Source: Patescibacteria group bacterium
Lineage (GTDB): Bacteria; Patescibacteriota; Minisyncoccia; Minisyncoccales; RBG-13-36-15
Length of the DNA stretch: 64,000 bases
Assembly: GCA_022574775.1 (NCBI GenBank)
Contig: JACZRI010000001.1
Location: 95,631 to 159,630, forward strand
Direction: 5' to 3'
Positions within the stretch are counted from its first letter, which is position 1. Each line of letters begins with the position of its first letter. Positions 1,850-61,213 of this stretch are shown one piece after another. Position numbers and translations under genes: made by a program. The notes under the pieces were generated by a model, which saw only the letters and a program-made list of their open reading frames with translations, was not told the DNA's origin and ran no database searches.

Positions 1850-1945
1850 CACCACGAATATTTTATCGCTAATACTTCAAAGATTATACGCGAATTGCCG
1901 CGAATATTTATGTTTATCGCTGTTAAAATTAGCGATTTATCGGTT
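1850..1945. repeat. Family C palindromic repeat (CGAATA units, central CTAAT)
   Basis: caccacgaatatt..tcgctaatactt..cgcgaattgccgcgaatattt. Same unit and central motif as 31235, 39121 and 43854. Confidence 0.6.
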
Positions 1946-1994
1946 GTTGGCATTAGTTTATTTATGATGAATAGCAAAATTTCTATCTTCCGAT

Positions 1995-3524
1995 ATGAAC
2001 CAAATTATTTTACTTTCAATTGGAGTAATATTTTTAGCTGTGGGAGCTATCCTGGGATATTATGCCCGCCAATCTATTGCGAGAAGGCAAATCGGAACTC
2101 TGGAAGAAAAAATTCAAAAAAGAGTTTCCGAAGCTAAAAATGAGGCTCAGTTAATCATAGCTGAGGCCACGGAAAAAGCCTCTCAGGTTTTAGGAAAAGT
2201 AAAAAAAGATATAGACCAAAGACAAGCAAGTCTGCTGAGAACTGAACAGTTATTGCTTAAAAGAGAAAATATTTTAGACAATAAATTTTCTCTTTTTGAG
2301 AAAAAAGAAAAAGAATTTCAGGAGAAAGTTCAGGCGTTAAAGAAGATTAAAAAGGACATAGAAGGATTAAAGGAGAAAGTTACAGAAAACTTAGAGAAAG
2401 TTTCCAAGTTATCCAAAGAAGAAGCAAAAAAAGAGCTTTTTGAGAATTTAAAGAAAAACTATCAAGCGGAAATTTTAGAGAAAATAAGGAGATTAGAGAA
2501 AGAAGGAACAGAACAATTTGAAAAGAAGGCGAAAGGGCTGATAGCTACTGCTATGCAGAGAGTTGCAATCAGTCAAGCCCAAGAGCTTACCACAACTACC
2601 ATTTCTCTTCCATCAGACGATATAAAAGGAAGAATTATCGGAAAAGAAGGAAGGAATATCAGGACTTTAGAAAGATTGACTGGTGTGGAAATTATTGTTG
2701 ATGATACACCGGGGGCAGTGGTTATCTCAGGTTTTGATCCAATCCGCCGCCAGATTGCGAAAATTGCTTTGGAGAAATTGATCTCTGACGGCAGAATTCA
2801 ACCCGCCAGAATTGAAGACGAGGTTTCAAAGGCTGAAGTTGAAGTTGCGAATAAAATAAAGGAAGCCGGAGAAGAGGTCGTGTACGAGACAGGATTAGTC
2901 GGCCTTCATCCGAAATTAGTTCAACTTTTAGGAAGATTAAATTTCAGGACAAGCTATGGCCAAAATGTTCTTTTACACTCTCTTGAGGTTTCCTATTTGG
3001 CAGAGGCCTTGGCTTCAGAAATTGGCGGAGACGCGCAAGTTTCAAAAAAGGCAGGGTTATTCCACGACATTGGAAAAGCAGTTGATCATCAAATTCAGGG
3101 TTCCCATGTTGTTATTGGAATGAAAATTCTGGAGAAATTTGATGTGGAGAAAGAAATAATTGACGCTATGAAATCTCACCACGAAGAGTTTCCCTACGAT
3201 ACCTTAGAATCGGTAATTGTCCAGGTGGCTGACCAAATTTCAGGTGCTCGGCCCGGAGCTCGAAAAGATACAGTTGAAAATTACTTAAAGAGGTTGGCCG
3301 ATTTAGAGGATATTGCGATTTCTTTCCCCGGCATTGACAAAGCTTGGGCTCTGCAGGCAGGAAGAGAGTTGAGAGTTTTCGTGAAGCCTGAAGACGTTGA
3401 TGATTTGACCAGCAGGCAATTAGCAAACGACATCGCAAAAAAAATTGAAGAAGAATTAAGATATCCTGGAGAAATAAAGGTGACGGTAGTGAGAGAAAGC
3501 CGAGTAATTGAATATGCGAGATAA
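1995..3524 (+). CDS. rny: Ribonuclease Y
   Basis: N-terminal TM helix, coiled-coil region, KH motif GKEGRNIRTLE, HD motif LFHDIGK. 509 aa, typical RNase Y layout. Confidence 0.95.
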   Translation: MNQIILLSIGVIFLAVGAILGYYARQSIARRQIGTLEEKIQKRVSEAKNEAQLIIAEATEKASQVLGKVKKDIDQRQASLLRTEQLLLKRENILDNKFSLFEKKEKEFQEKVQALKKIKKDIEGLKEKVTENLEKVSKLSKEEAKKELFENLKKNYQAEILEKIRRLEKEGTEQFEKKAKGLIATAMQRVAISQAQELTTTTISLPSDDIKGRIIGKEGRNIRTLERLTGVEIIVDDTPGAVVISGFDPIRRQIAKIALEKLISDGRIQPARIEDEVSKAEVEVANKIKEAGEEVVYETGLVGLHPKLVQLLGRLNFRTSYGQNVLLHSLEVSYLAEALASEIGGDAQVSKKAGLFHDIGKAVDHQIQGSHVVIGMKILEKFDVEKEIIDAMKSHHEEFPYDTLESVIVQVADQISGARPGARKDTVENYLKRLADLEDIAISFPGIDKAWALQAGRELRVFVKPEDVDDLTSRQLANDIAKKIEEELRYPGEIKVTVVRESRVIEYAR

Positions 3525-3545
3525 AGGATTATAATTATTTAAACA

Positions 3546-3577
3546 AGAATACGCCGCGTTAGAAGCGGCGTATTCTT
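3546..3577 (+). terminator. Rho-independent terminator after rny
   Basis: aagaatacgccgc-gttagaa-gcggcgtattctt followed by ttg. Confidence 0.7.
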
Positions 3578-3584
3578 TTGTTGA

Positions 3585-3655
3585 AGCGGGTGATGGGAAT
3601 CGAACCCACATAGCTAGGTTGGAAACCTAGAACTCTACCATTGAGCTACACCCGC
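3585..3655 (-). tRNA. tRNA-Gly(TCC)
   Basis: Hand-folded cloverleaf: acceptor GCGGGTG/CACCCGC, anticodon stem CTAGG/CCTAG, loop TTTCCAA, T-loop TTCGATT. Confidence 0.9.
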
Positions 3656-3662
3656 AAATAAT

Positions 3663-3733
3663 TCGGGGTACTCGGATTCGAACCGAGACTAAATCCTCCC
3701 AAAGGACTCGTGCTACCGTTACACTATACCCCG
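3663..3733 (-). tRNA. tRNA-Pro(TGG)
   Basis: Acceptor CGGGGTA/TACCCCG (C1-G72), anticodon stem AGTCC/GGATT, loop TTTGGGA, T-loop TTCGAAT. Confidence 0.9.
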
Positions 3734-3896
3734 CACCTAAATTTATATCATTTTATTTTTTCTCGGTCAACCACGTTAAAAATTCTTGATTTCTATAATT
3801 TAGTAATTGTGGTCCTGCTAAGAATGATTTAAAATAAAATTGTAAGATTATGGATTACGGCTATATTTCTAATGTAGTCAATGATATAATTAATTA

Positions 3897-4844
3897 GTGA
3901 TCATCAGAAAATTCCTTAAGCATCTGAATATCCTTGCCCAATCTCGAGAATCCGGAGTTTCCATTTGGCAATATCCACAATTTCTCTTTTTAGTAATGGG
4001 AATAATGACTATTGTTTCAATTCTTACTGCTTACGTTATTGGTATTCGGTATGTGGCAGAACCTGAAGTGGTGGTTTTAATAGTGCTTATTCTATCAGCC
4101 ATTTTGTTGGTTATTACTTTCACTATTACCCAAAGTTTTGAAAGATTGATTGAAGCCAACCGGATGAAATCAGAATTTGTGAGTATTGTTTCCCATCAAT
4201 TACGCTCTCCCCTTTCCAATTTGAAATGGGCCCTTGAGTTATTAATGTCAGGAAGGCTTGGGAAGATTGAAGCTCAACAGCTTGAGTATTTCGGAATTTT
4301 GAAAGACAGCAGTGCTCGTATGAGAGAGTTGGTTAGAGATCTTTTGATTGTTTCCAGAATTGAGCAAGGCAAACTTCCATTACAAACAGTAGAAGTTTCT
4401 TTACCTCTTTTAGTAAAAGATCTGATTTTAGAATTTACTCCCTTGGCTGAGGCCTCAAATGTTGTAATAAAATTTGAACCAGATAACAGTCTCCCTAATG
4501 TGCTCGCCGATCCTTCTAAGGTAAAGTTAGTTGTTGAGAATTTTTTAGACAACGCAATCCGCTATATTAAAGGAAACGGGGAGGTTGGAATTAAGCTTAG
4601 CAGAGAAGATAATTTTCTTCACTTTCAGATTAGAGATAATGGAGTAGGCATTCCCAAGGAGGACCAGAAGTATATTTTCAAGAAGTTTTTTCGGTCATCA
4701 AACGTTTTGAAGCGTCAAACCCAGGGGACAGGACTTGGTCTGTATATTGCAAAATCTATTATCGAAAGGTCGAAAGGGAAAATCTGGTTCAAATCAGAGG
4801 AAGATAAGGGAACTACACTTCATTTTATTTTACCAATTAAATAG
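3897..4844 (+). CDS. Sensor histidine kinase (membrane-bound, HisKA + HATPase_c)
   Basis: Two N-terminal TM helices. H-box SHQLRSPLS, N-box DNAIRY, G-boxes DNGVGI and GTGLGL. GTG start. Confidence 0.85.
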   Translation: MIIRKFLKHLNILAQSRESGVSIWQYPQFLFLVMGIMTIVSILTAYVIGIRYVAEPEVVVLIVLILSAILLVITFTITQSFERLIEANRMKSEFVSIVSHQLRSPLSNLKWALELLMSGRLGKIEAQQLEYFGILKDSSARMRELVRDLLIVSRIEQGKLPLQTVEVSLPLLVKDLILEFTPLAEASNVVIKFEPDNSLPNVLADPSKVKLVVENFLDNAIRYIKGNGEVGIKLSREDNFLHFQIRDNGVGIPKEDQKYIFKKFFRSSNVLKRQTQGTGLGLYIAKSIIERSKGKIWFKSEEDKGTTLHFILPIK

Positions 4845-4940
4845 AAGCAGACTTAACTCTGATAAGTATACTGAACTACGCTGAAAAAATCGGTGGTTCA
4901 TCAGCGTTTTCAATCATTGTATTATCAGTTTCTGCAAAAT

Positions 4941-5309
4941 ATGGAAAAAATTTTATTCATTGAGGATGAATCAGCTCTCCAAAAAACTCTTGGAGAGATA
5001 TTGCGGCAAGAAGGTTATGAGATAATTTCTGCTCTAGATGGTGAAATTGGTTTAAAGTTGGCTAACGCGAAAAAGCCTGACTTGATTTTACTTGATCTTA
5101 TCTTGCCGAAAATTCACGGTTTTGAGGTTTTGAAAAAATTAAAAGAAAATGCTGAAACAAAAGCGATTCCAGTATTGGTTTTAACAAATCTGGAGGATGT
5201 AAAAGATATTGAAAAGGTCCTTGAATTAGGAGCAACCACCTATTTGGTTAAAGAAAATTATAGCTTAGAAGAAGTGCTTGAGAAAATAAAGAAAACCCTA
5301 AACCAATAA
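4941..5309 (+). CDS. Receiver-only response regulator (CheY-like)
   Basis: MEKILFIEDE.., phospho-acceptor context DLILLDLILP, VLVLTN, no output domain. Start moved to ATG 4941 inside track ORF 4893..5309. Confidence 0.85.
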   Translation: MEKILFIEDESALQKTLGEILRQEGYEIISALDGEIGLKLANAKKPDLILLDLILPKIHGFEVLKKLKENAETKAIPVLVLTNLEDVKDIEKVLELGATTYLVKENYSLEEVLEKIKKTLNQ

Positions 5310-5410
5310 AACATTCTAACATCTAAACATATCAACATTAAAATACGCAGTTTTTGAATATTTACAGAATGTTAAAATGCTTAAATGTTTGTATGTTTAA
5401 ATGATTCATG
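5310..5410 (+). repeat. Family A periodic hairpin (AAACAT units / ATGTTTAA units) ending at the pilB start
   Basis: Left arm aacattctaacatctaaacatatcaacatta. Right arm aatgttaaaatgcttaaatgtttgtatgtttaaatgattcATG. Confidence 0.75.
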
Positions 5411-7156: not shown

Positions 7157-7157
7157 C

Positions 7158-7220
7158 GTGAAATATGAAGTGCGAAGAAACGAAGAATTCTTCAGATCTT
7201 CAGATCTTCAGACTTCAGGC
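7158..7220 (+). repeat. Family B hairpin repeat (GAAG-N3-4 units / CTTCAGA units)
   Basis: gtgaaatatgaagtgcgaagaaacgaagaattcttcagatcttcagatcttcagacttcaggc, with a central gaagaattcttc palindrome. Confidence 0.75.
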
Positions 7221-7228
7221 TTTGTATT

Positions 7229-8452: not shown

Positions 8453-8453
8453 A

Positions 8454-9329: not shown

Positions 9330-9331
9330 AC

Positions 9332-9395
9332 AAAGTATGAAATACAAAGTACGAAGAAACGAAGAAAAAAAATTTTCAGAACTTCAGACTTCTTG
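9332..9395 (+). repeat. Family B hairpin repeat
   Basis: aaagtatgaaatacaaagtacgaagaaacgaagaaaaaaaattttcagaacttcagacttcttg. Contains the first ATG of the next ORF. Confidence 0.75.
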
Positions 9396-10448: not shown

Positions 10449-10451
10449 AAA

Positions 10452-10515
10452 TAATCTAAACATATTAATATGTTTAGATAGCGTTAAAATGCTCAGATGC
10501 TTAAATGTTAAAAAG
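10452..10515 (+). repeat. Family A periodic hairpin
   Basis: Perfect 26-bp palindrome atctaaacatattaatatgtttagat (10454-10479), then gttaaaATGctcagatgcttaaatgttaaaaag. Confidence 0.8.
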
Positions 10516-12333: not shown

Positions 12334-12360
12334 ATTACTTCCGGCACTTAAGTTTTTAGT

Positions 12361-12419
12361 TGAATGTTAAAATGGTAGAATATAATGAGATGCCTAATAG
12401 CTAACTTAACATGTTTGAG
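12361..12419 (+). repeat. Family A-related units (partial) at the pilM start
   Basis: tgaatgttaaaatgg ... ctaacttaacATGtttgag. The ATG at 12411 is the pilM start. Confidence 0.45.
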
Positions 12420-13538: not shown

Positions 13539-13540
13539 TT

Positions 13541-20172: not shown

Positions 20173-20175
20173 TCG

Positions 20176-20257
20176 TCTAAGTATCTAAATATTTTAGCAT
20201 TTAAACATTTTTCTAATTTCGATCTGTTTAGATGTTTATATGTTTGAATGTTTAAAC
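20176..20257 (+). repeat. Family A periodic hairpin between infB and rbfA
   Basis: Left arm tctaagtatctaaatattttagcatttaaacattt. Right arm ctgtttagatgtttatatgtttgaatgtttaaac. Confidence 0.75.
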
Positions 20258-20606
20258 GAGCCTTACGAAGCGTATTCAACGTATCAATCAACTTATAAAG
20301 GAGGAAATTAGTAAGATTCTTCTTAGGGAAGTTGATTTTCCTCAAAATACCTTAGTTACTGTGATGAGGGTGGAAACTTCTCCAGATTTGAGGCAGGCAA
20401 AAATTTTTATCAGCTGTATTCCCGAAAATAATAAACTAAAAGCGTTTAGAATATTACGTAAAAACCTTTCTTTAGTCCAAAGAAAAATTGGTGAGCGTCT
20501 TTCAATAAAAATAACCCCGAAAATAAAATTTATTGAAGAGAAAAAAGCTCAAGCAGTAGCAAGGGTTGAGGAGCTTTTGGAGGAGATAGATAATCAGAAT
20601 AATTGA
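20256..20606 (+). CDS. rbfA: Ribosome-binding factor A (start codon unresolved)
   Basis: KRIQRINQLIKEEISKILLREV...VTVMRVETSPDLRQAKIFIS matches the RbfA N-terminus. The frame opens at 20256 after a TAA. The first canonical in-frame start (GTG 20361) would delete the conserved helix. Confidence 0.75.
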   Translation, partial: TSLTKRIQRINQLIKEEISKILLREVDFPQNTLVTVMRVETSPDLRQAKIFISCIPENNKLKAFRILRKNLSLVQRKIGERLSIKITPKIKFIEEKKAQAVARVEELLEEIDNQNN

Positions 20607-20607
20607 T

Positions 20608-20680
20608 GGCCACGTAGCCAAGTAGCTAAGGCGACGCTCTGCAAAAGCGTTATACGCGAGTGCAAATCTCGCCGTGGCCT
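20608..20680 (+). tRNA. tRNA-Cys(GCA)
   Basis: Acceptor GGCCACG/CGTGGCC, anticodon stem ACGCT/AGCGT, loop CTGCAAA, unusual T-loop TGCAAAT. Starts 2 nt after the rbfA stop. Confidence 0.8.
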
Positions 20681-20806: not shown

Positions 20807-20841
20807 TAAAAAACCCGCCCAGTTTAACTGGGCGGGTTTTT
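20807..20841. terminator. Bidirectional terminator
   Basis: aaaaaacccgccc-agtttaact-gggcgggttttt, between the tRNA-Leu and the convergent 3D-domain gene. Confidence 0.75.
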
Positions 20842-31709: not shown

Positions 31710-31778
31710 TTAATTTCTAATTACTAATTAATTAAAACTTTAGAAATCAGGTTAATTCGAAATTAGATATTTTTATAT

Positions 31779-34274
31779 ATGGCTTCTAATGCTAAAAAAT
31801 TGAATACGGAGATTGGTTATATCAGACCTCGTGAAATAGTTGAGGAGATGCGGGTGTCTTATATTGATTATGCGATGTCAGTAATTATTTCACGGGCATT
31901 GCCCGATGTGAGGGATGGCTTAAAACCGGTCCATCGGCGAATTTTATATACGATGCATGAAGACGGATTAACTCATGGGGCTAAATTTAGAAAATCGGCA
32001 ACGGTAGTGGGTAGCACTTTAGGTCGTTATCACCCTCATGGCGATCAGGCGGTTTACGATTCCTTAGTTCGTATGGCCCAGGATTTTTCGTTAAGGTATC
32101 CTTTAATTCAAGGCCAAGGAAATTTCGGGTCGATTGACGGGGATCCTCCAGCCAGCATGCGTTATAGTGAAGCAAAACTCTCAAAAATTGGCGAGGAAAT
32201 GCTTAAAGATATCAACAAGAATACCGTCGATTTTATTGATAATTATGACGGAACGAGAAAGGAACCGATAGTTTTGCCTTCCCCTTTCCCTCAGCTTTTA
32301 TTAAATGGCACCCTTGGAATTGCGGTAGGCATGGCTACTAATATTCCTCCCCATAATTTATCTGAAGTTGTAGATGCCGCTGTTTATCTGATTGATCATC
32401 CAAAAGCCGTAACAGAAGAACTATTCAAATTCATTAAAGGACCTGATTTTCCAACCGGTGGTCAAATTTTCAACCAGAAAGAAATTATCACTGCCTATTC
32501 GCAGGGAAAGGGGCCTGTTGTAATAAGGGGTAAGGCAGAAATTGTAGAGAGCGAGAAGCAGGATCGTCCTCAAATTGTAATTACCGAGATTCCCTTTCAG
32601 GTTCAAAAGTCTTCTTTGGTTAAGCAGTTAGCTAATTTAGCTTCAGAAAAAAAGATTGACGGGATAAAGGATATTAGAGATGAGTCAGACAGAGAGGGAT
32701 TGAGAATCGTCATTGATTTACAAAGAGATGCTTTTCCTCAAAAGGTTTTAAACAGACTTTATAAGTTCAGCGATCTTCAGAAGACTTTCCATTTAAATCT
32801 TTTGGCGCTGGTTGACGGGATTCAGCCAAGAGTTTTGAATTTAGTTGAAATTTTAAATTATTATCTTTTACACCGCAAAGAAGTCGTTTTAAGGAGAACG
32901 AAGTTTGATTGGAGTAAGGCGAAAGAGAGAGCCCATGTTTTAGAGGGGCTGCACAAATGCCTGGCGAAAATTGATTCTGTTATTAAGATTATTAAAGCTT
33001 CAGCCAACAGAGAAGATGCCCAGAAGAAGTTAATGAAGAAGTTTAAACTCACTGAAATTCAGGCAAACGCAATTTTAGATACGAAACTTTCAGCTTTGGC
33101 GAAACTTGAGCGAAAGAAGATAGAAGAGGAATTAAACGAGCTCCGTAAGAGAATAAAGGAACTGACTGTAATCCTAAAAAGCCCTCAGAAGATTAAAGAT
33201 GTTGTCAAAAAAGAGTTGAAAGAGCTGAAGGAAAATTTTGGAGACGAAAGAAGGACAAAAGTTTATATTCAAAAGATTGATGAGCTGTCCCTGGAAGATC
33301 TAATTCCGCAAGAAGAAGTAGTTTTAACTTTAACAAAAGGAGGTTATATTAAAAGAATAAATCCAGGTATCTATAAAATCCAGAAAAGAGGAGGAAGAGG
33401 GCTCTTGGGAATGAAGACGGTAGGAGATGATATTGTTGAACATTTCCTTTCGGCAGACACTCATGATAAACTTTTGTTCTTTACTGATTCTGGGAAGGTT
33501 TTTAGAACCATGGTTTATGAAATTCCAGAAGGGACGAGGGTTGCTAGAGGAAGAGGGCTTTTGAATTTTTTAGAGATTTCTCCGAAAGATAAAGTTTTGT
33601 CTCTTATTTCTCTGGGCAAGGAAGATACAGGTTTGGGGATAGAATACTTAGCGATGGTCACGAAAAATGGGATAATAAAGAAAACCGCTTTGAAAGATTT
33701 TGAGAATGTGCGAAAATCAGGTCTATTGGCAATTACGTTAAAAAAAGGAGATTCTTTAAAACAGGTTGGGAAGAGCGCGAAAGCTGATGAATTGATTCTC
33801 ATAACGAAAAAAGGCAAAAGCATCCGCTTTCAAGGAAAAGAAGTTAGAGAAATGGGAAGGCAGGCGGCAGGAGTGAAAGGAATTAGCTTGAGAAAGGATG
33901 ACGAGGTAGTGGGGATGGCGGTTATACGAAGTACGAAGTACGAAGTAGGAAGAAATAAAGAAAAAAGATCTTCAGACTTCCTTTTGGTGTTGAGTGAGAA
34001 TGGATTTGGCAAGAGAACTGCTATTAAAGAATACAGGCTGCAGTCCAGAGGTGGTTCCGGAACCAAAACTGCAAATATCAATCCAAAAACCGGTGATTTA
34101 GTTTCTGCCCATCTTTTAACAGGAGAAGAAGAAGATTTAATTGTTATTTCTCAAAGAGGCCAGGTAATAAAAAGCAAAATTGCTTCCATCCCGATTTTAG
34201 GAAGATCTACCCAGGGAGTGAAAATTATGAAATTAGAGGAAGGAGACCGCGTGGCATCTGCGGCATGTATTTAA
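31779..34274 (+). CDS. gyrA: DNA gyrase subunit A
   Basis: [27 protein letters not shown], catalytic region RYHPHGD, GyrA-box/beta-pinwheel CTD. 831 aa. Confidence 0.95.
33925..33981 (+). repeat. Family B repeat copy embedded in-frame in gyrA
   Basis: tacgaagtacgaagtacgaagtaggaagaaataaagaaaaaagatcttcagacttcc, encoding [18 protein letters not shown]. Confidence 0.75.
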
Positions 34275-34890: not shown

Positions 34891-34896
34891 AGAGGG

Positions 34897-34933
34897 ATAC
34901 AACTTGACGGGAACTGTTCCCGTCAAGTTGTAT
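34897..34933. repeat. REP-type palindrome (family D)
   Basis: atacaacttgacgggaac-t-gttcccgtcaagttgtat, perfect 18-bp arms. Same core as the REPs around the RAYT gene at 56.7-57.6 kb. Confidence 0.85.
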
Positions 34934-35000
34934 CTTAGTACAGCGGGGACAGTTTCCGGACTAGTTGATTTATTTTGTTAAGGTGATAAGATTAAAAAAC

Positions 35001-39922: not shown

Positions 39923-39924
39923 AA

Positions 39925-39990
39925 ATGAAGTCTGAAGTCTGAAGTCTGAAGTTCTGAAGATTTCATTCTTCCTTTCTTCGTACTTCGTAC
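39925..39990 (-). repeat. Family B hairpin repeat (reverse orientation)
   Basis: Reverse complement reads aaagtatgaagtacgaagtacgaagaaaggaagaatgaaatcttcagaacttcagacttcagacttcagacttcat. Confidence 0.8.
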
Positions 39991-39998
39991 TTCATACT

Positions 39999-42311: not shown

Positions 42312-43853
42312 ATGACAGAAGATTATTATCTCAAAATCTCTCGCGCCTCTGATTTAAAAAGCCGAAAAGAGAGACTATTATATAGATTATTGGAAATTTT
42401 CCCCGGGATGCTTTCTTGGGGAACTTTAATTTTAGTTATTTTCTTCTCTTGGAAATTCCCTGCCATCATCGCAATTTTCATCATCTTTTTTGTTTTATAC
42501 TGGTTTTTCCGCACTATTTATCTTTCTTTTCATCTAAGGGCAGGTTATCAGAGAATGCGTCAACATGAGAAAGCAGATTGGCTGAAGAAATTAAACCAAT
42601 TACAAAATAAGAGACGGCAAGAAATTCGCCATCTTATTGTTCTGCCAATGTACAGAGAGCCTTTGGAGATTGTTCGGAATAGTTTTTTATCTCTTGTAAA
42701 ATCCGATTACCCAAAAGAGAATATGATTGTTGTTCTAGCCTGTGAAGAAAAAGCCAGAGATTATTCTTTGCCGATAGCCGAAGCAATCAAGAAGGAGTTT
42801 GGCAGTAAATTTTTCAAGTTTTTGATAACATGGCATCCTCAAAATATTCCCGGAGAGATTCCTGGGAAGGGATCCAACGAGACATTCGCAGTAATGAAAG
42901 TAAAAAAGGAAACTATCGATCCTCTTAAAATACCTTATCAAAATATAATTTTTTCTTCTTTTGATATAGATACAGTGGTTTTTCCAAAATATTTTAGCTG
43001 CCTCACCTATTACTATTTAACTTCAATAAATCCTACAAGAACAAGCTATCAGCCTATTCCACTTTTTATTAATAACATCTGGGAAGCTTCTGCTTTTTCT
43101 CGTGTGTTTGCTTTCTCTGCCACTTTTTGGCATACAATGAATCAGGAAAGGCCTGAAAAACTGATTACTTTTTCATCTCATTCAATGAGTTTTAAGGCTC
43201 TTGTTGATGTCGGTTTTAAATTGCCCAATGTCGTCTCTGATGATTCCAGAATCTTTTGGCAATGCTTTCTAAAATACAATGGCGACTACCGTGTTGAGCC
43301 AATATACTATCCGGTTTCAATGGATGCTAACTGCGCAAAAACTTTTTTTAAAACTCTAATCAATATTTACAAACAGCAAAGAAGATGGGCCTATGGGATA
43401 GCTGACATTCCTTACTTCCTTTTCGGATTTTTAAAAAATAGAAAAATACCTCTTTCTAGAAAGTTATTGTTGGGGTTTGAACTGATTGAAGGGCATTGGT
43501 CTTGGGCTACGGCGTCCTTCCTGATTTTTTTCCTTGGATGGCTGCCTTTGATTTTGGGAGGACCCGAGTTTACACAAACACTTTTTTCTTATAATTTGCC
43601 GAGAATAATCAGTTTGGTTTTAACTTTATCTATGATAGGACTTATCAGCTCAGCTTATTTGAGCCTTCTTTTACTTCCTCCCAGACCTCCAAAATATAGG
43701 AGGCATAAATATCCGATTTTGTTTTTACAATGGTTTTTGCTTCCTTTGATGATGATTTTTTTTACTGCTCTACCTGCTTTAGAAGCTCAAACCAGATTGA
43801 TGCTGGGAAAATATATGGGTTTTTGGCCGACAGAAAAATTTCGTAAACAATAA
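42312..43853 (+). CDS. Membrane-embedded family 2 glycosyltransferase (processive, QxxRW type)
   Basis: N- and C-terminal TM bundles, IVLPMYREP, DIDT, QRRWAYG. Confidence 0.75.
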   Translation: MTEDYYLKISRASDLKSRKERLLYRLLEIFPGMLSWGTLILVIFFSWKFPAIIAIFIIFFVLYWFFRTIYLSFHLRAGYQRMRQHEKADWLKKLNQLQNKRRQEIRHLIVLPMYREPLEIVRNSFLSLVKSDYPKENMIVVLACEEKARDYSLPIAEAIKKEFGSKFFKFLITWHPQNIPGEIPGKGSNETFAVMKVKKETIDPLKIPYQNIIFSSFDIDTVVFPKYFSCLTYYYLTSINPTRTSYQPIPLFINNIWEASAFSRVFAFSATFWHTMNQERPEKLITFSSHSMSFKALVDVGFKLPNVVSDDSRIFWQCFLKYNGDYRVEPIYYPVSMDANCAKTFFKTLINIYKQQRRWAYGIADIPYFLFGFLKNRKIPLSRKLLLGFELIEGHWSWATASFLIFFLGWLPLILGGPEFTQTLFSYNLPRIISLVLTLSMIGLISSAYLSLLLLPPRPPKYRRHKYPILFLQWFLLPLMMIFFTALPALEAQTRLMLGKYMGFWPTEKFRKQ

Positions 43854-46423: not shown

Positions 46424-46425
46424 CC

Positions 46426-49798: not shown

Positions 49799-49805
49799 CA
49801 ACCAT

Positions 49806-49861
49806 TAAAACATCCAAACATTATGAATTTGAGTTTTGTTTAAATGTTTATATGATTTATG
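49806..49861 (+). repeat. Family A periodic hairpin ending at the start codon
   Basis: aaaacatccaaacattatg ... ttttgtttaaatgtttatatgatttATG. Confidence 0.7.
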
Positions 49862-50911: not shown

Positions 50912-50916
50912 GCGTT

Positions 50917-51183
50917 ATGGCAATTTTACCAATAAAAAAGAAAGACAGAAAAATCTTCAACTGGATTTTATTAATTATAGCTTTAATTCTAGTGGCTTGG
51001 TTTGGCAGAGATTTTTTCGTTAAACCTTCTTTTCTTTCTCCTTCCAGTCTGCCACAGGAAAAAAAAACGGAAATTAATTTTGAAGTATTGAAAAATCCTC
51101 TATTGCAAGACCTTCAGCCTTTTGAGGAGATCCCTTCTTTTGAAGGAGAGACTGGCAGGGAAAATCCTTTCCTACCGTATTGA
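50917..51183 (+). CDS. Small N-terminally anchored protein following pilO (unknown)
   Basis: One TM helix, ends ..GRENPFLPY. Positional counterpart of 14736..15074. Confidence 0.45.
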   Translation: MAILPIKKKDRKIFNWILLIIALILVAWFGRDFFVKPSFLSPSSLPQEKKTEINFEVLKNPLLQDLQPFEEIPSFEGETGRENPFLPY

Positions 51184-51256
51184 CATTTAAATATTTAAAC
51201 ATTTTAACAGAATTGAACCAAATGTTTAGAAGTTTAAATGTTCAAATGTTTATATG
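51184..51256 (+). repeat. Family A periodic hairpin ending at the pilB2 start codon
   Basis: catttaaatatttaaacattttaac ... aaatgtttagaagtttaaatgttcaaatgtttatATG. Confidence 0.75.
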
Positions 51257-52981: not shown

Positions 52982-52989
52982 AAAATTAT

Positions 52990-53065
52990 TCAAACATTTT
53001 AACATTTAAACATTTTAACAATGCGTTAAGATATTTATATGCTTATATGCTTAGATGTTTAGATG
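52990..53065 (+). repeat. Family A periodic hairpin ending at the response-regulator start codon
   Basis: tcaaacattttaacatttaaacattttaac ... tttatatgcttatatgcttagatgtttagATG, clear 8-nt period. Confidence 0.8.
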
Positions 53066-53428: not shown

Positions 53429-53432
53429 AAAT

Positions 53433-54500: not shown

Positions 54501-54503
54501 AAA

Positions 54504-55718: not shown

Positions 55719-55744
55719 AGCACAGTAGATAACTGTGGGACTTT

Positions 55745-55774
55745 ACCGAGCACATAATACCTTATGTGCTTGGT
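55745..55774. repeat. Family E hairpin
   Basis: accgagcac-ataataccttat-gtgcttggt, 27 nt after the pilC2 stop. Confidence 0.55.
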
Positions 55775-55963
55775 TCTCGCCTCACTATCGTTCGGCTCAA
55801 AAGTTTTCCACAGCCAGCTCTCCTTAATTTCTGGATTTATAATATAATACACTAAAGGTGCTGGGTTCGAATCTCATACCCTAAAGGCTGTGTTTAAATT
55901 ATCCACAGCCATAAAAATAAAAATAATAAAGGTCGAGAAAGAATTTAAAACTAAGAATTAAAA

Positions 55964-56431: not shown

Positions 56432-56550
56432 GGAATCCAAACGATTGGTTTTCCTTCATTAAGCCCCGACTCTCGAGAGAAAGATAGCTTTGAAAGTAGA
56501 AAGATAGATATATTCCGCAAAAATAAAAATTAGCCGGTTCATTTTCAGCA

Positions 56551-56587
56551 AATCAACCCGCCTCTTCGGCGGGTTGATTTTTTTGTT
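56551..56587 (+). terminator. Strong rho-independent terminator after the pilin gene
   Basis: aatcaacccgcc-tcttc-ggcgggttgatt then ttttttg. Confidence 0.8.
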
Positions 56588-56705
56588 TCCCATTTTTAAC
56601 TTTTGGAGTATTTTTAACCCCATTTTGGATATCGTCTTAACTCCTCCAGGACTTAACTTCTTTAGAACTTAATTGCTAAAAAATATCCTTGTCAAATAAC
56701 AGAAT

Positions 56706-56738
56706 CAACTTGACGGGAACTGTTCTCGCTAGTTCCCG
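56706..56738. repeat. REP palindrome, degenerate (family D)
   Basis: caacttgacgggaactgttctcgctagttcccg. Confidence 0.6.
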
Positions 56739-56787
56739 ATAAACTTACCGAAAACAGTTTACGCTATACCTTCAAATCTGTTATAAT

Positions 56788-56818
56788 CAACTCAACGGGA
56801 ACTGTTCTCGTTAAGTTG
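56788..56818. repeat. REP palindrome, 2 mismatches (family D)
   Basis: caactcaacgggaac-t-gttctcgttaagttg, ending 4 nt before the RAYT ATG. Confidence 0.7.
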
Positions 56819-56822
56819 AACA

Positions 56823-57533
56823 ATGCCGATCAAAAGACCACAATTAGTGACCGGTGAAATCTATCATGTAGTAATGCGTGGAGTTGATAAAAGGATAATT
56901 TTTCCTCAAAAAGAGGATTATTTTCGTTTTATCCACGACCTTTTCGAATTTAATGATGAAGATGATGTAATCAGTGTATACCGTTTCCATACTAACAACT
57001 TGACGGGAACTGTTCCCGTCAAGTTGAGAAAAGAGAGAAAGAAGAGGAAACTTTTGGTAGAAATTTTGGCTTTTTGTTTAATGTCCAATCATTTTCACCT
57101 ATTATTAAGACAGATTAAAGGACAGGGAATAAGCAAATTTATGAGAAAACTTGGGGGTTATGCCACTTACATTAATAAAAAGTATGAAAGAGAAGGCCAT
57201 CTCTACCAAGGAAGATTTCGGGCAGTTCACATTAAAGATGAAACCCAGCTAAAAAATGTATTTGTATATATTCACGCCAACCCTATTGAGTTTATAGAGC
57301 CGGGATGGAAGGAGGAAGGAATAAAAAATCCCAAAGGAGCAATTAAGTTTTTAGAGAGTTATCGGTGGTCAAGTTATTTAGATTACATCGGAAAGAAAAA
57401 TTATCAATCAATAACAAATAGAGAATTATTTAATAATATTTTAGGAAACAAAGAAGGTTGCCGGGAATCTGTTGAAAATTGGATTTTATATAAAGCAGAT
57501 ATTAAAAATTTAGGTCAGGTTGTTTTAGAATAA
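56823..57533 (+). CDS. IS200/IS605-like Y1 (HUH) transposase of the RAYT type
   Basis: GEIYHVVMRGVDKRIIF, HUH motif MSNHFHLLL, GHLYQGRF, catalytic-Tyr context VFVYIHANPIE. 236 aa. Confidence 0.8.
   Translation: MPIKRPQLVTGEIYHVVMRGVDKRIIFPQKEDYFRFIHDLFEFNDEDDVISVYRFHTNNLTGTVPVKLRKERKKRKLLVEILAFCLMSNHFHLLLRQIKGQGISKFMRKLGGYATYINKKYEREGHLYQGRFRAVHIKDETQLKNVFVYIHANPIEFIEPGWKEEGIKNPKGAIKFLESYRWSSYLDYIGKKNYQSITNRELFNNILGNKEGCRESVENWILYKADIKNLGQVVLE
56996..57026. repeat. Perfect REP palindrome inside the RAYT coding sequence (in frame)
   Basis: caacttgacgggaac-t-gttcccgtcaagttg, encoding NLTGTVPVKL. Confidence 0.85.
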
Positions 57534-57560
57534 CTTGACGGGAACAGTTCCCGTCAAGTT
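57532..57560. repeat. Perfect REP palindrome (family D)
   Basis: aacttgacgggaac-a-gttcccgtcaagtt, overlapping the RAYT stop codon. Confidence 0.85.
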
Positions 57561-57576
57561 GGTTAACGGTCTTAGT

Positions 57577-57609
57577 CCAACCTGTCGAGAACAGTTCTCG
57601 ACAGGTTGG
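57577..57609. repeat. REP variant palindrome (family D)
   Basis: ccaacctgtcgagaac-a-gttctcgacaggttgg. Confidence 0.8.
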
Positions 57610-57689
57610 GGATGTTTGTTTTTGGTTTTTTAATTTTGGTTTTTTGGTGTATAATTTAATAATGTTTAGTTTTACGGCATTTTTTCTCA

Positions 57690-58460
57690 ATGTTTAAGAA
57701 AATGTCTGAAAAATTTTCTCCGAATAGAGGATTTTCATTGATTGAAATGCTAACCGTTATTGCCATAATTGGTATTTTTGCAGGGATTGTTATAGTGGTT
57801 GTTGGCTCTGCCAGGAAACAGGCAAAAGAGGCCAGAATCAGCAGTGATTTGGTACAGCTTCAAAACCAGGCAGAAATTCTTTACTTGGATGATGGAAATT
57901 ATAGTAATGTAAGATGTACAACAACCGGTTCTCCGGAAGTTCAAGCTCTTTGCGATGATGTAAGCGATCAAGGAAGCTTAATGACTATTCGACCTTCCCT
58001 TTATACATACTGTGCTTATGCCGTTTTTCCATTTTCCATAAAGGGTTACTGTGTTGACTCTGCAGGTTTTTCAGATAAATTGGCTTTTCCTTCGCTTTCC
58101 TGTGATTTTATTCCTTTCTGTGAATATAGGGATTGTCCCGACTTTAATGCTAATGGAGTGGTGGAATGCAGTAATGATCCAGATCCTGAAGAAGCATCGA
58201 ATTGCCCCTTCCAGAGCCGGGGCGTCCCTGGTAGTGATCTGTATTGTATCTTTGAATGTCATGGGCTTTCCTCAAGTAATCTTCCTTCAGAGTGTGGTGT
58301 TGACCCTTGTCCTCCTCGTGGTGATGCTGGTAATCCTGGTCGTTGTGGAGAGGACAATGAGATATGCTTGGCAATATATGATATTAATGAGGATGGAGTT
58401 GTAGATTTACCTAATGATATATTGGGTGTGATATTATTGCTTGGTACGGTGTGTGAATAG
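57690..58460 (+). CDS. Type IV pilin paralog with Cys-rich C-terminal extension carrying dockerin/EF-hand-like loops
   Basis: Leader ..SPNRG then FSLIEMLTVIAIIGIFAGIVIVVVG. Shares ALCDD and YC.DS motifs with 55964..56431. The tail carries DFNANGVVECSND and DINEDGVVDLPNDILGVILLLG. Confidence 0.75.
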   Translation: MFKKMSEKFSPNRGFSLIEMLTVIAIIGIFAGIVIVVVGSARKQAKEARISSDLVQLQNQAEILYLDDGNYSNVRCTTTGSPEVQALCDDVSDQGSLMTIRPSLYTYCAYAVFPFSIKGYCVDSAGFSDKLAFPSLSCDFIPFCEYRDCPDFNANGVVECSNDPDPEEASNCPFQSRGVPGSDLYCIFECHGLSSSNLPSECGVDPCPPRGDAGNPGRCGEDNEICLAIYDINEDGVVDLPNDILGVILLLGTVCE

Positions 58461-58477
58461 TCCGATCTGGTTTTGCA

Positions 58478-58514
58478 AACTTACAGGGATTCAAAATCCC
58501 TGTAAGTTATTTTT
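58478..58514 (+). terminator. Terminator after the second pilin gene
   Basis: aacttacaggga-ttcaaaa-tccctgtaagtt then attttt. Confidence 0.7.
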
Positions 58515-58534
58515 AAAGTCAGGTATAATAAAAA

Positions 58535-59341
58535 ATGGCAATTTTTTATTTTATTGTATTTATATTAGGCCTATCGGTGGGCTCTTTTTTGAATTCAGTA
58601 ATTTATCGGCTAAAAAGCGGAGACAGCTTTCTTTTTAAAAGATCTTATTGTCCCCGCTGTAAACACGCTTTAACTTGGCAAGATTTAATTCCCCTTTTGA
58701 ATTTTATCATTCTGGGAGGTAAGTGCCGTTATTGCCATCAGCGGATATCGTTCCAGTATCCAGCAGTGGAACTTGCAACAGGGATTTTATTTGTTTCCGT
58801 TTTTCTTCATACTTTTAATTCTTTCCAAATTGACAATACTGCCATGACAATGTTGTTAGGTTTTTACTATTCAGCGGCAATTTGTTTTTTAATAATCATT
58901 TTTGTTTACGATTTAAAACATTTCATAATTCCGGACAAAATAATTTATCCGGCCATATTAGCATCTGGCATTTGGTATCTGGCATCTGGCATTTTTTTTA
59001 ATCTCTATACAAAATATGAAATACTAAATGCTGTATTCTCGGGTCTTGGAGCTGCTGCTTTTTTTCTTGCGATTATCTTGATTTCCCGCGGTAAATGGAT
59101 GGGATTGGGCGATCCAAAATTAGCTTTTTTTATGGGATTTTTTCTTGGCTTCCCCAATATTTTAGTCGCCCTCTTTTTTGCTTTCTTCATCGGAGCTATA
59201 ATAGGAATAGGGTTGATAGTTTTTAAGAAGAAAGCGCTTAAAAGTGAAGTTCCGTTCGGGCCCTTTTTAGTGACAGGAACGCTTATTGCGTTTTTCTGGG
59301 GAGAAACTATTATTAGCCGGTATCTAAATTTATTTTTGTAA
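58535..59341 (+). CDS. pilD: Prepilin peptidase PilD (A24 family)
   Basis: N-terminal CPRC...CRYC zinc motif, polytopic. Aspartyl motif contexts VYDLKHFIIPD and MGLGDPKL. Confidence 0.9.
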   Translation: MAIFYFIVFILGLSVGSFLNSVIYRLKSGDSFLFKRSYCPRCKHALTWQDLIPLLNFIILGGKCRYCHQRISFQYPAVELATGILFVSVFLHTFNSFQIDNTAMTMLLGFYYSAAICFLIIIFVYDLKHFIIPDKIIYPAILASGIWYLASGIFFNLYTKYEILNAVFSGLGAAAFFLAIILISRGKWMGLGDPKLAFFMGFFLGFPNILVALFFAFFIGAIIGIGLIVFKKKALKSEVPFGPFLVTGTLIAFFWGETIISRYLNLFL

Positions 59342-59349
59342 AAATCATC

Positions 59350-59420
59350 AAAATACCTAAACATCTAAATGATTAAGTTTCAATTTTGTTAAAATGTTAA
59401 AATACTTAAATGTTAAAATG
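59350..59420 (+). repeat. Family A periodic hairpin
   Basis: aaaatacctaaacatctaaatgatt ... ttttgttaaaATGttaaaatacttaaatgttaaaATG. Confidence 0.75.
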
Positions 59421-59984
59421 AAAAAGAAAGGTTTTACCATCATTGAACTGCTCGTCGTCATAAGTATTATCGCTATTCTGTCAGGAATAGTTTTGATTGA
59501 TTACCGGTCCGGCCAACAAGCATTTGCTCTTCAGAGGACAGCTTCCAAATTAGCCCAAGACATCAGAAGGGCTCAGGAAATGGCAATGTCAGCGGGTGAG
59601 TGTACTTTCTGCGACCTCTCATGTAGTCCAAATGGGGTTCCGTCTGGGTATATGGTAGTGTTTACTAGTAATCCAAATTACAGTATATTTGCTGATGACG
59701 GTGATAAAGTTTTCGATTCTGGTGACTGTAACATTCTTGGGAATCCTATACCATTTGAGAAGGGTATTGTGATTGATGCTCTTTCTTCAGATTTAACTTT
59801 TGAGCCTTTTCTGTCAATCACTTTTACTCCTCCTGACCCTATTGTTACTATTTGTCATGGATCAGCCTCCTGCAGTGTTTCTTCCGGGTGGATTCGGCTT
59901 TGTATAGAGGGAAGTGATTGCTTAGATCCGTCAAATACAAAAACCATCAACATTAATACAGTTGGCCGAATTGAGATAGACTGA
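59394..59984 (+). CDS. Minor pilin, FimT/GspH-like, locus 2 (alternative start ATG 59418)
   Basis: ..KKKG then FTIIELLVVISIIAILSGIVLIDY. The first 8 codons (MLKYLNVK) come from the family A repeat. Confidence 0.75.
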   Translation: MLKYLNVKMKKKGFTIIELLVVISIIAILSGIVLIDYRSGQQAFALQRTASKLAQDIRRAQEMAMSAGECTFCDLSCSPNGVPSGYMVVFTSNPNYSIFADDGDKVFDSGDCNILGNPIPFEKGIVIDALSSDLTFEPFLSITFTPPDPIVTICHGSASCSVSSGWIRLCIEGSDCLDPSNTKTININTVGRIEID

Positions 59985-59989
59985 CCAGG

Positions 59990-60043
59990 CATATAAACAT
60001 ATAGACATATTTTTAAATGCTAAAATACTTAAATGTTAAGGTG
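59990..60043 (+). repeat. Family A periodic hairpin
   Basis: catataaacatatagacatat ... tttttaaATGctaaaatacttaaatgttaagGTG. Confidence 0.7.
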
Positions 60044-60541
60044 AAGAAGGGTTTTACTCTTCTTGAGGTCACCATCGCTATTTTTATACTGCTGGTTGGA
60101 GTAACGGCAGGTTCAGTCTTAATTGCCAGAACAGTTAGCCAGATGAGTGTTTTTTCTTCCAAACTGATAGCTGCCTATTTAACCCAGGAGGGAATAGAGA
60201 TTATAAGAAATATCAGGGATACGAATTGGCTGCAAGGAGGGGCTTGGGATGAAGGACTTACTGGATGTTTTTTTACAGGGTGTGAAGCAGATTATACTGC
60301 TACGACCGTAGAAAATCCTCCAGGTGCCACAGCTTATTTTGAGACCTTTGCCAATAATTTTTTAAAAATTGATATCAGTGGTTTCTATAATTATACTTCT
60401 GGTACAGATACCAAATACAAAAGAAAAATTACGATTGTATCCGGGGCAGATATTTTAACAGTTACCGTGGAGACTACCTGGTCAGAGAAAGGAAAAGATT
60501 ATTCTCATATTGCCCAGGAAATTTTGTATAACTGGAAATAA
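60017..60541 (+). CDS. Minor pilin, PilV/GspI-like, locus 2 (alternative start GTG 60041)
   Basis: ..VKKG then FTLLEVTIAIFILLVGVTAGSVLI. The first 8 codons (MLKYLNVK) come from the family A repeat. Confidence 0.7.
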   Translation: MLKYLNVKVKKGFTLLEVTIAIFILLVGVTAGSVLIARTVSQMSVFSSKLIAAYLTQEGIEIIRNIRDTNWLQGGAWDEGLTGCFFTGCEADYTATTVENPPGATAYFETFANNFLKIDISGFYNYTSGTDTKYKRKITIVSGADILTVTVETTWSEKGKDYSHIAQEILYNWK

Positions 60542-60557
60542 ATAGCCAATAATTTAA

Positions 60558-61109
60558 ATGAATAAAAACAAAGCTTTTAGCTTAATTGAAATGCTAGTCG
60601 CAGTAACAGTTTTTACATTGATTATGGGGTCAGCTGCCGGTCTTTTTATTGCAGGTATTCGCTCCCAAGCCAAAGCATTAGTTTTCAATAAACTTATAGA
60701 CGAGACGGGTTTTGTGATGGAAAAGATGAGCAGGGCTTTACGAATGGCAAAAAAAGACTTATCTGCTAGCTGTACCCAAAGTTGTCCGGGTTGTAACTAT
60801 GCTCCTCTTCCTTCTCTGGGAGATTCGACGATCAGTTTTATAAATTCTCAGGATGAATGCATGGCGTTTTATGGAGGCTCATTCGTAGGCCCACTTTTAT
60901 ACCAAGATCCTGGATTCAACGAGCTCATCTCAACTGATTTTGAAGTTACCTCTGTTGTATTTGATCTTTCTGGTGAATCTCAAAGTGAGATACCTAATCT
61001 TCAACCCAGAGTAACCATTTTGCTGAAAATTAAAAATGCCAACGCGGCAAAACCAGAAATGACAATCCAGACCACCATTTCCCAGCGAAACTTAGACGTT
61101 CAACAATAA
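60558..61109 (+). CDS. Minor pilin, PilW/GspJ-like, locus 2
   Basis: MNKNKA then FSLIEMLVAVTVFTLIMGSAAGLF. Confidence 0.7.
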   Translation: MNKNKAFSLIEMLVAVTVFTLIMGSAAGLFIAGIRSQAKALVFNKLIDETGFVMEKMSRALRMAKKDLSASCTQSCPGCNYAPLPSLGDSTISFINSQDECMAFYGGSFVGPLLYQDPGFNELISTDFEVTSVVFDLSGESQSEIPNLQPRVTILLKIKNANAAKPEMTIQTTISQRNLDVQQ

Positions 61110-61111
61110 TA

Positions 61112-61213
61112 AAAGTACGAAGTATGAAGTACGAAGAAATAAAAAAGATAAAGAAATTCGAAGTACGAAGTACGAAGAAAAGAAATTTTTCTAATCTTTA
61201 TACTTCATACTTC
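61112..61213 (+). repeat. Family B hairpin repeat (duplicated left arm)
   Basis: aaagtacgaagtATGaagtacgaagaaat...ttcgaagtacgaagtacgaagaaaag...ctttatacttcatacttcc. Confidence 0.8.

Follow-up and report, generated by a model that had tools for sequence, protein, structure and literature searches.

Here we describe families of short repeat elements in a stretch of 64,000 nucleotides (hereafter the window) from a Patescibacteria group bacterium (GenBank assembly GCA_022574775.1, contig JACZRI010000001.1, positions 95,631 to 159,630). The window has a GC content of 34-46% and carries two type IV pilus clusters, together with rny, infB, gyrA, leuS, recG, an ftsH-like gene, a gene for an S1 protein and 20 tRNA genes. 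It belongs to a reduced genome, as an earlier note on this DNA had supposed, and this genome is one of the candidate phyla radiation (CPR)/Patescibacteria. The nearest genomes by PilB are metagenome-assembled genomes of Patescibacteria (83% for L003, 69% for L004 and L007; L-numbers denote comparison loci or contigs), followed by Nealsonbacteria and Minisyncoccales. L001 and L002, from other assemblies, are 99.99-100% identical to part of the window and hence offer no variation. Inspection by eye gives about 16 elements (40-170 nt, non-coding), which make up about 2% of the DNA and belong to at least four word families lying side by side. They look like miniature mobile inverted repeats, built like foldback elements, of a kind not yet described for Patescibacteria.

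The elements were located with Tandem Repeats Finder (TRF) and an inverted-repeat search, and the intergenic gaps were inspected by eye (Table 1). Each consists of inverted arrays of short tandem units, and these lie where the earlier note had placed them. An Rfam scan of the window returned no family besides tRNAs, and no match for the repeat elements. The periodicity of the units holds against shuffled sequence: when two arms of period 6-9 are required that lie at most 60 nt apart and are complementary in two or more registers, the window yields 8 loci, and 40 shuffles confined to 60-nt blocks yield 0.03 on average and never more than 1. With 6-mer seeds, we count 8 chains of at least three pairing registers, at a spacing of 6-9 nt, in the window and 1.8 ± 1.5 after shuffling. 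A permissive count of registers gives no difference (198 in the window, 183 in the shuffles), while exact-word and strict-period detectors and a regular-expression census of the families across locus sets were too strict for use; only detectors demanding periodic registers or periodic arms separate the window from its shuffles. Families A, B and C are true repeat families and not chance, and the elements are found in many genomes, at sites that are not orthologous.

The unit length of 7-8 nt given in the earlier note applies to family A (AAACATnT, period 8) and family B (GAAGTnn, period 7) but not to family C, whose unit is a 7-nt core, CAC(G/T)AAT, with linkers of 0-6 nt and a period of about 10-12 (TRF period 11). 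The statement that almost every gap above 60 bp holds an element was too strong: read by eye, about 22 of about 38 gaps hold any dispersed repeat. Of these gaps (≥60 nt), about 13 contain a tandem-unit element and about 9 more a simple hairpin (families D, E and F) resembling repetitive extragenic palindromic (REP) sequences; the remaining gaps contain only tRNAs, promoters or ordinary GC-rich terminators.

Table 1. Repeat elements and associated features of the window (positions counted from its first nucleotide; ORF, open reading frame).
Feature	Position	Strand	Units or build	Context
A1	5305..5407		AACATnnT x4 / AATGnTnA x5	fills the gap from a response-regulator gene to a pilB-like gene
A2	10449..10488		minimal palindrome TCTAAACATAT-TA-ATATGTTTAGA, one unit per arm	between pseudopilin genes
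A3	20173..20262			between infB and rbfA; its end is an in-frame TAA just 5' of the rbfA reading frame
A4	49799..49858			pilM-pilN gap; occupied in L085 by family C (136 nt)
A5	51178..51253			directly upstream of pilB; orthologous copy in L085
A6	52982..53062		left arm AAACATTT x4, right arm TATGCTTA-type	gap from pilB to a response-regulator gene
A7	59342..59420			upstream of a pilin gene
B1	7157..7228		left heterogeneous GAAG units, right TCTTCAGA x3.9 (95% identity)	between a pilB-like gene and pilC
B2	33920..33985	+		inside gyrA, in frame
B3	39923..39998		TGAAGTC x4.7 / CTTCGTA x3.4	between leuS and the PrsW-protease gene
B5	61110..61213	+	two left-arm arrays, one right arm	
C1	1845..1940		diverged (CCACGAAT, CGCTAAT, CGCGAAT x2 / ATTAGCG)	upstream of the RNase Y gene
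C2	31225..31391		four left units, long loop, two right units	
C3	39115..39196		CACGAAT/ACTAAT x4, ATTCGTG/ATTAGTG x3, period about 11	between the PrsW-protease and hsp20 genes
C4	43854..43926		C-like, CCGAAT / ATTCGG units	between convergent genes (ORF 42312-43853 and recG)
Extra family	31711..31771		TAATTnC x3 / GAAATTA	upstream of gyrA; not in the earlier note's list
Y1 transposase gene (IS200-like; like REP-associated tyrosine transposases, RAYT)	56823..57533	+		own GC-rich REP hairpins on both flanks
REP hairpins	56700-56822, 57534-57609; also 34896-34934		CTTGACGGGAAC-GTTCCCGTCAAG type	
GC-rich hairpin	61214..61243	+	CCGCTAAAGGCGAGGCTCGCCAAAGGCGGC, 30 nt	in frame just after B5; absent from L085

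A single design shared by unrelated word families, which had been proposed from the window, proves to be broader than was claimed, with at least eight further families in related Patescibacteria loci. In L004, TAGATAnT/ATCTAAnA units lie directly upstream of pilB, the site occupied by family A in the window. L007 carries ATGAATA/TTCATAA and ACGAATT/AATTCGT, and L084 carries AATCCAAA/TTTGGATT and ATGAAAA/TTTTCAT, with AATCCAAA found again in an unrelated metagenome contig. Other pairs of words are TTTGTAAT/ATTACAAA (L009), ATACGAAA/TTTCGTAC (L015), TAATAAGAC/GTCCTATAT (L016), TTCACGAA/ATTCGTG (L019, 52% GC), AAATCTCA/TGAGATTT (L005) and TAGCTTCT/AGAAAGCTA (L086). A few clear cases of the same build are present in Nitrospirota and Desulfobacterota (L055 13992-14059; L066 3269-3351; L071 19597-19657; L054 16262-16330; L059 3283-3383). 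Among the words in these phyla, ATGGGTGA/ACTCATAT follows rho (L055), GGTTGAGT/TCAACGAC follows a pilB-like gene and AAGTAAG/CTTACTT separates convergent genes (L071).

Family C was followed beyond the window by a metagenome scan with its exact 17-mer CACGAATAATCACTAAT, which returned 104 stretches. About 51 of these are real family C elements (27 distinct, on contigs of 29-56% GC), and about half of the 104 matches were discarded as chance occurrences in coding DNA. The elements have the build C[CAC(T/G)AAT] x2-4, a loop of 0-60 nt, [ATT(C/A)GTG] x2-4 and a final G, and their termini read CCAC(T/G)AAT ... ATT(C/A)GTGG, a terminal inverted repeat as found in miniature inverted-repeat transposable elements (MITEs). 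All 27 distinct copies are intergenic, nearly all lying no more than about 30 nt from the end of a flanking ORF. The loop of C2 contains a hairpin, TTCGTCGAtTCAGACTCGATT, that is also present in an L085 copy from a different gap, the one separating pilB from the response-regulator gene. One family C copy in L085 has a REP-like hairpin nested in its loop. The 17-mer gave no real copies in viral contigs, and the family C consensus gave no meaningful match in annotated plasmids or phages.

In these elements the words and their mirror-symmetric spacing are conserved, and base-pairing is not. When 12 compact family C copies are aligned, the columns with at least 80% conservation are the cores, and the linkers vary. 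The lengths of the linkers nevertheless mirror each other between the two arms (Spearman 0.84, n=26), while their sequences have no excess of complementarity (0.49 within copies, compared with 0.44 in a between-copy control). The central base of the heptad matches its partner in 19 of 92 cases in the register consistent with the spacing (anti-matched), and in 55-61% of cases one unit off. The single strand of the family C consensus folds strongly (z -8.1 and -7.2), but in a staggered register. In A6, each unit contains a systematic A.C mismatch.

The arms of the elements are about 65-89% complementary, and folding of the single DNA strand, compared with shuffles, gives z-scores of -0.14 for A6, -1.7 for A1, -2.7 for A5, -2.85 for B3 and -2.8 for C3, so that several elements fold no better, or barely better, than shuffled sequence. 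The elements had been seen as hairpins in which the pairing matters. This is not supported as their essence, given the linkers and heptad centres described above, the absence of a better fold on the sense strand (of 14 scorable elements, 10 fold more stably on the antisense strand) and the random orientation of family C relative to genes (6:5); the conserved part is the words and their mirrored spacing. Neither compensatory pairs nor a better fold of the transcribed strand, as expected of a structured RNA, was found. The elements also differ from intrinsic terminators in that their stems are AT-rich, interrupted, without a T-run and mostly internal to operons.

These results bear on a role of the elements as intercistronic RNA hairpins, which would weakly terminate transcription, offer sites for RNase processing or stabilise 3' ends, and set protein ratios within an operon. 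REP sequences and bacterial interspersed mosaic elements (BIMEs), and the stem-loops of selective RNA processing and stabilisation, set operon protein ratios in this way (PMC4423207). Most copies do lie between co-directional genes of one operon and span the interval from stop to start codon, and RNA-parameter folding gives -9 to -32 kcal/mol. Most close relatives have an element, of whichever family, in the gap 5' of pilB and in the one that separates pilB from the response-regulator gene, although more distant relatives have none there. Shine-Dalgarno-like motifs are rare (6 of 51 genes, in the 20 nt upstream of starts), so intercistronic structure could matter. We nevertheless regard this role as very unlikely, in view of the more stable antisense strand, the random orientation, the linkers without compensatory pairing, the systematically mismatched core centres, the elements that fold no better than shuffles, and the lack of a U-tract, where canonical GC-rich terminators with T-runs are found elsewhere in the window (1661-1696, 20809-20841, 56560-56590 and 62290-62315).

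At orthologous gaps, gain, loss and replacement of elements are faster than, or about as fast as, synonymous saturation. The gap between pilB and the response-regulator gene consists of a few bases in L004 and L006-L012, and is occupied by family A in the window, by family C in L085, by CTGGTAG/AACTACTA units in L003 and by a C-like element in L086, where the sequence covers its first ~30 nt. The gap between the hsp20 and PrsW-protease genes holds family C in the window and a C-like element in L084, and is nonexistent in L083, where the genes abut. Between the PrsW-protease gene and leuS, family B in the window corresponds to family A in L084. L085 is 87.6% identical to the window (12.4% divergence) at 842 four-fold degenerate sites. 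In L085, A5 and B5 have orthologous copies, A4 and A6 are replaced by family C and A7 by another family (AGCTAA/TTAACAAT), and the orthologous site has no RAYT gene; even at this level of divergence, two of the three family A elements of the pil operon are family C. The A5 copies match at 66 of 70 positions, which is not clearly higher than the neutral expectation of 87.6%. The copies are mobile, or at least spread, since insertions are polymorphic and subfamily features are common to non-orthologous sites.

The same comparisons bear on the possibility that the words are host cis-regulatory or nucleoid-protein arrays, that is, operators for small proteins binding contiguous 7-8-bp units, which would tune expression or topology, for example of the pilus operons. 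Ribbon-helix-helix proteins bind such arrays (the omega repressor heptads WATCACW, the 8-bp metboxes of MetJ and the 8-bp-spaced boxes of ParG). Many left-arm units of family C read AATCAC(T/G), which we take to be close to the omega heptad. Contiguous direct and inverted units of 7-8 bp are present in family A (8 bp), family B (7 bp) and some family C copies, and conservation of words and mirrored spacing without base-pairing, together with the lack of a strand or orientation bias, is what operator arrays would give. Six of the seven family A copies sit in the pilus clusters, which make up about 36% of the window, and one family lies on both sides of pilB in three genomes. Unlike a conserved regulon, however, the same gap in close relatives holds other word families or nothing, family C copies (mostly between co-directional genes) have unrelated neighbours across 27 contexts, and some copies lie inside coding sequence. 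In addition, A5 is not significantly more conserved than neutral sites, and no cognate protein is known. We consider this explanation distinctly unlikely.

The number of units per arm is 1-5 and varies between copies and between orthologues, as it does in the tandem-subrepeat inverted ends of foldback elements. The proposal that the arrays grow and shrink by slippage of units is borne out in part: unit number varies (2-4 per arm in family C, 1-5 in family A), and at the A7 gap L003 has a family A element with another unit number, but the closest pairs compared, A5 and B5 with their counterparts in L085, have identical unit numbers. Some single arms are near-perfect arrays that are not mirrored by their partner (B2 left, 0.95; B3 right, 0.94; L016, 0.92/0.93), compared with identities of 0.65-0.79 between arms. 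Overall, identity within arms does not exceed that between arms (0.76 and 0.75, 8 of 19), and the contrast is clear only in single cases.

The unmirrored arms are what would be expected if the elements were a mutational by-product, in which slippage builds arrays in AT-rich spacers, intrastrand template switching inverts them and the words recur by recombination, with neither an enzyme nor a function involved. Heptamers are reported to be the commonest bacterial repeats with units of several bases, an abundance attributed to polymerase slippage (PMC4679880). A heptamer array occurs even within the prepilin-peptidase coding sequence, the build of the elements is found sporadically in unrelated phyla, and where a gap has A in one genome and C in another, the junctions of the two elements have the microhomology AAACA in common. 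Local slippage cannot, however, repeatedly produce the two heptads, the terminal CCAC...GTGG and the mirrored spacing that family C keeps on contigs of 29-56% GC, nor do copies with a common loop hairpin at different loci and in different genomes fit this origin. The detectable density is also specific to the lineage: the window has about 12 loci per 100 kb, compared with 2.1 for the other CPR pilB loci and 0.6 for loci from outside the CPR. A purely mutational origin is unlikely in our judgement.

Our preferred interpretation, to which we assign a probability of about 0.5, is that families A, B and C and their relatives are non-autonomous, foldback- or MITE-like dispersed repeats, the ends of which are inverted arrays of recognition words. 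Like MITEs, they are short, non-coding and non-autonomous, with many dispersed copies (about 16 in 64 kb, and the 27 distinct family C copies in metagenomes). Each end would be an array of 1-5 copies of a short word (a 5-7-nt core with a variable linker), the two ends being inverted relative to each other. The words may bind a trans-acting protein, most likely a transposase or recombinase with several protomers per end, as at the ends of Mu, Tn7, IS607, hAT and Foldback elements. This suggestion, and those below on the growth of the arrays and on their convergent build, are made because words and spacing are conserved without pairing, because near-perfect arms occur without a mirrored partner, and because foldback, hAT and IS607 elements provide a precedent. 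The arrays would grow by tandem duplication (slippage or unequal exchange), and selection at the level of the element for more binding sites could lead convergently to the same build in every family. Folding in multiple registers would then be a by-product of two adjacent inverted arrays and not a selected function. Copies would persist only where they are harmless, in the short spacers of co-directional genes, in a surface-exposed GyrA loop that varies or in an N-terminal tail.

Several observations weigh against an origin of this kind. About 1.1 Mb of CPR-type loci contain no inverted arrays 0.3-6 kb apart that enclose a transposase gene, but only neighbouring elements. No direct repeat that could represent a target-site duplication flanks the 27 family C copies or the polymorphic gaps, for which no exactly empty allele from a very close relative was compared. 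The only transposase gene of the window is RAYT-like and has different REPs, and no partner protein was found. Paralogous family C copies are 70-85% identical, which is below the neutral identity (87.6%) of the genomes between which replacement occurred, and simple recent transposition therefore fails to explain the replacements. The spacing of 7-8-bp units is tighter than that of known transposase-binding sites. The copy counts come from 64 kb and from fragments, and not from a whole genome.

A more specific proposal, tentative and in our view rather unlikely, is that Patescibacteria harbour a new class of prokaryotic foldback elements, made of 7-8-bp modules with mirrored spacing and a deliberately mismatched centre, and that an enzyme other than the RAYT recognises either the staggered fold of the single strand or the dyad-symmetric duplex and moves or copies the elements. 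If so, foldback elements would be a main driver of intergenic turnover in these minimal genomes, and occasionally also a source of new protein segments. Genomes of CPR/Patescibacteria are generally described as streamlined and repeat-poor, and about 2% of these 64 kb consists of word-family repeats. Full-text searches of a collection of papers returned no REP-, MITE- or foldback-like dispersed repeats described for Patescibacteria, nor such repeats or such a build for CPR or other bacteria. If the arrays are recognition sites, they point to a mobilising or binding protein that would be widespread in groundwater CPR, given the occurrence of family C on contigs of 29-56% GC. In practice, such elements break assemblies, shift gene-start calls and can serve as strain-level markers.

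Foldback transposons have inverted ends made of tandem subrepeats that provide extra transposase-binding sites, a build that several transposon lineages are thought to have acquired independently by elongation of terminal repeats (PMC4079207). Foldback (FB) and foldback-like MITEs, such as Drosophila FB, Galileo and Tetris, resemble the elements described here in their variable number of subrepeats, in the folding back of the single strand and in that most copies are non-autonomous. They differ in being eukaryotic and hundreds to thousands of bases long, with subrepeats of 10-220 bp, target-site duplications and transposases of known superfamilies (Mutator or P), whereas the window elements are bacterial and 40-170 nt long, with units of 7-11 nt and no duplication seen; the analogy is one of build only.

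Bacterial MITEs and the REP, REPIN (paired REP) and BIME sequences are likewise short, intergenic, dispersed and palindromic, with many copies and presence/absence differences, and are tolerated inside operons. REPs are GC-rich hairpins of 20-40 nt with a GTAG or CGTC tag (PMC3733652). They flank their RAYT, whereas families A-C are AT-rich arrays of tandem words, lack a GTAG or CGTC tag and do not adjoin the RAYT gene, and only the E-type hairpins of the window resemble REPs. Typical MITEs have a target duplication and a parent insertion sequence, neither of which was found for families A-C in the loci examined. Rickettsia palindromic elements are palindromic repeats of a reduced genome that can lie in frame inside genes and be translated, and B2 (in GyrA) and B5 (in an N-terminal extension) behave alike. 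The Rickettsia elements differ in having probably unrelated sequences of about 100-150 nt without tandem-word arms, and the window copies are mostly intergenic.

Each arm of the window elements, taken alone, looks like the short tandemly repeated repetitive (STRR) sequences of cyanobacteria and the TAACTGA arrays of Beggiatoaceae, which are tandem 7-nt units in 2-6 intergenic copies, often ending at a start codon without a Shine-Dalgarno sequence (PMC4679880). Those arrays are direct only (one inverted case in 170 sets), with one word per genome, whereas every array in the window has an inverted partner and several families coexist. The ends of IS607 and hAT elements carry multiple short subterminal repeats (PMC6188088). 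Both these ends and the omega, MetJ and ParG arrays are comparable in having several short direct and inverted sites, which in those systems are bound cooperatively by many protomers. The arrays in the window are more tightly spaced than those of transposon ends, and their positions are not conserved as those of operators would be.

The repeats have contributed translated segments to GyrA and to a pilus-cluster protein, and B2 and B5 both lie in frame inside protein genes. B2 forms a 60-nt in-frame stretch of gyrA and falls in a loop of the C-terminal domain of the protein; all 18 aligned relatives differ in the length of this loop. Apparent split gyrA genes in relatives were considered as elements and rejected, being assembly gaps or frameshifts. 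B5 has the duplicated left arm that had been reported for it, with arrays at 61113-61136 and 61159-61177 and a single right arm at 61186-61213. Its translation supplies the start codon and about 30 codons, which form an N-terminal extension of ORF 61124-62206 (MKYEEIKKIKKFEVRSTKKRNFSNLYTSYF). The extension is kept in frame in L085 (18965-19060), and in L003 (18146-18275) the counterpart of this ORF starts just before the membrane helix, with another element upstream. The ancestral ATG seen in L003 (MQRGIALY) is CTT in the window.

The heptamer array in the prepilin-peptidase gene consists of 4-5 copies of GCATCTG/GTATCTG (window 58961-58992; L003 16030-16060; L085 16763-16796). It encodes SGIWYLAS-type residues of a membrane segment, and the protein length is unchanged. 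We rejected an origin of this array as an insertion, since the membrane segment to which it aligns is ordinary and its length constant. The PilD protein of L085 (16291-17142) has an 18-residue insertion, PPKSPQKFLRNLGELTGL, in its N-terminal zinc-finger region, and the prepilin peptidase of L008 (15740-16645) has an 11-residue insertion near the same site; both may be in-frame repeat insertions.

In three genomes, elements of a single word family flank pilB, or the block formed by pilB and pilC, on either side, and the family differs by genome (window 51224-51256/52993-53020; L004 9965-9997/14495-14518; L005 4526-4549/8470-8498). In all three, the inner arms facing the pilB block are mutually complementary. 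Downstream of A7, the true start of the pilin gene is likely the ATG at about 59418 (MKKKGFTIIEL). In the rbfA reading frame adjoining A3 (TSLTKRIQRINQLIKEEISK..., window 20240-20610), neither ATG, GTG nor TTG occurs from the in-frame TAA up to the conserved N-terminus, and the nearest ATG lies inside A3 in another frame; a non-canonical start, a frameshift or a sequencing error are possible.

Two further identities for the arrays were considered and rejected. As DNA uptake sequences, the words would be over-represented throughout the genome, coding DNA included, yet TAAACAT, CGAAGTA and CACGAAT occur 11, 2 and 1 times outside the elements, no more than the 22.4, 8.0 and 8.0 predicted from base composition over the whole window. 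Integron attC sites were dismissed, as no GTTRRRY box was seen by eye in the arms and the flanks are syntenic housekeeping and pilus genes.

The RAYT-like protein matches PF01797 and scores 50 bits against NF047646, below the cut-off of 80. The flanks of its gene hold CTTGACGGGAAC-type hairpins and not families A-C. At the corresponding site of L085 (13580-13775), the RAYT gene and most REPs are absent and one REP copy is kept; L085 still carries families A and C and others. The GC-rich hairpin of family F, ACCGAGCAC...GTGCTTGG, lies at the 5' end of its gap in the window (55719-55963) and at the 3' end in L085 (12852-13105). The two gaps differ by clean indels, and family F is another family of mobile hairpins.

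In viral contigs, inverted arrays of CATATGAA x4 / TTCATATG x3 are present in L099 (8913-8988), L136 (1930-2005) and L163 (3243-3310); these phage arrays share the build of the elements above and could serve as an operator or origin. A scan of viral contigs with the family A array pattern returned many unrelated AT-rich arrays, including some in giant-virus contigs, and was uninformative for the CPR families. L021, a 5.2-kb Paceibacteria contig with pilB, has a perfect 25-nt inverted repeat near both ends (89-113 and 5067-5091), which could mark a small transposon or a circular element, or be an assembly artefact.

Four genomes have the motif AAAGGTCGAG or AAAGGTCGAA upstream of pilin-like genes (window 55930-55963; L085 13060-13105; L084 12633-12715; L083 12158-12180), and it also lies beside some family C copies (L228, L303). 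In the window and L085, for which the start was read, the motif precedes the ATG by about 25-30 nt. TAtAAT-like boxes are found no more than 20 nt upstream of the start in six genes (e.g. 58535 and 30571), several ending 5-10 nt from it. Together with the sparse Shine-Dalgarno-like motifs, these boxes hint at leaderless or Shine-Dalgarno-independent initiation.

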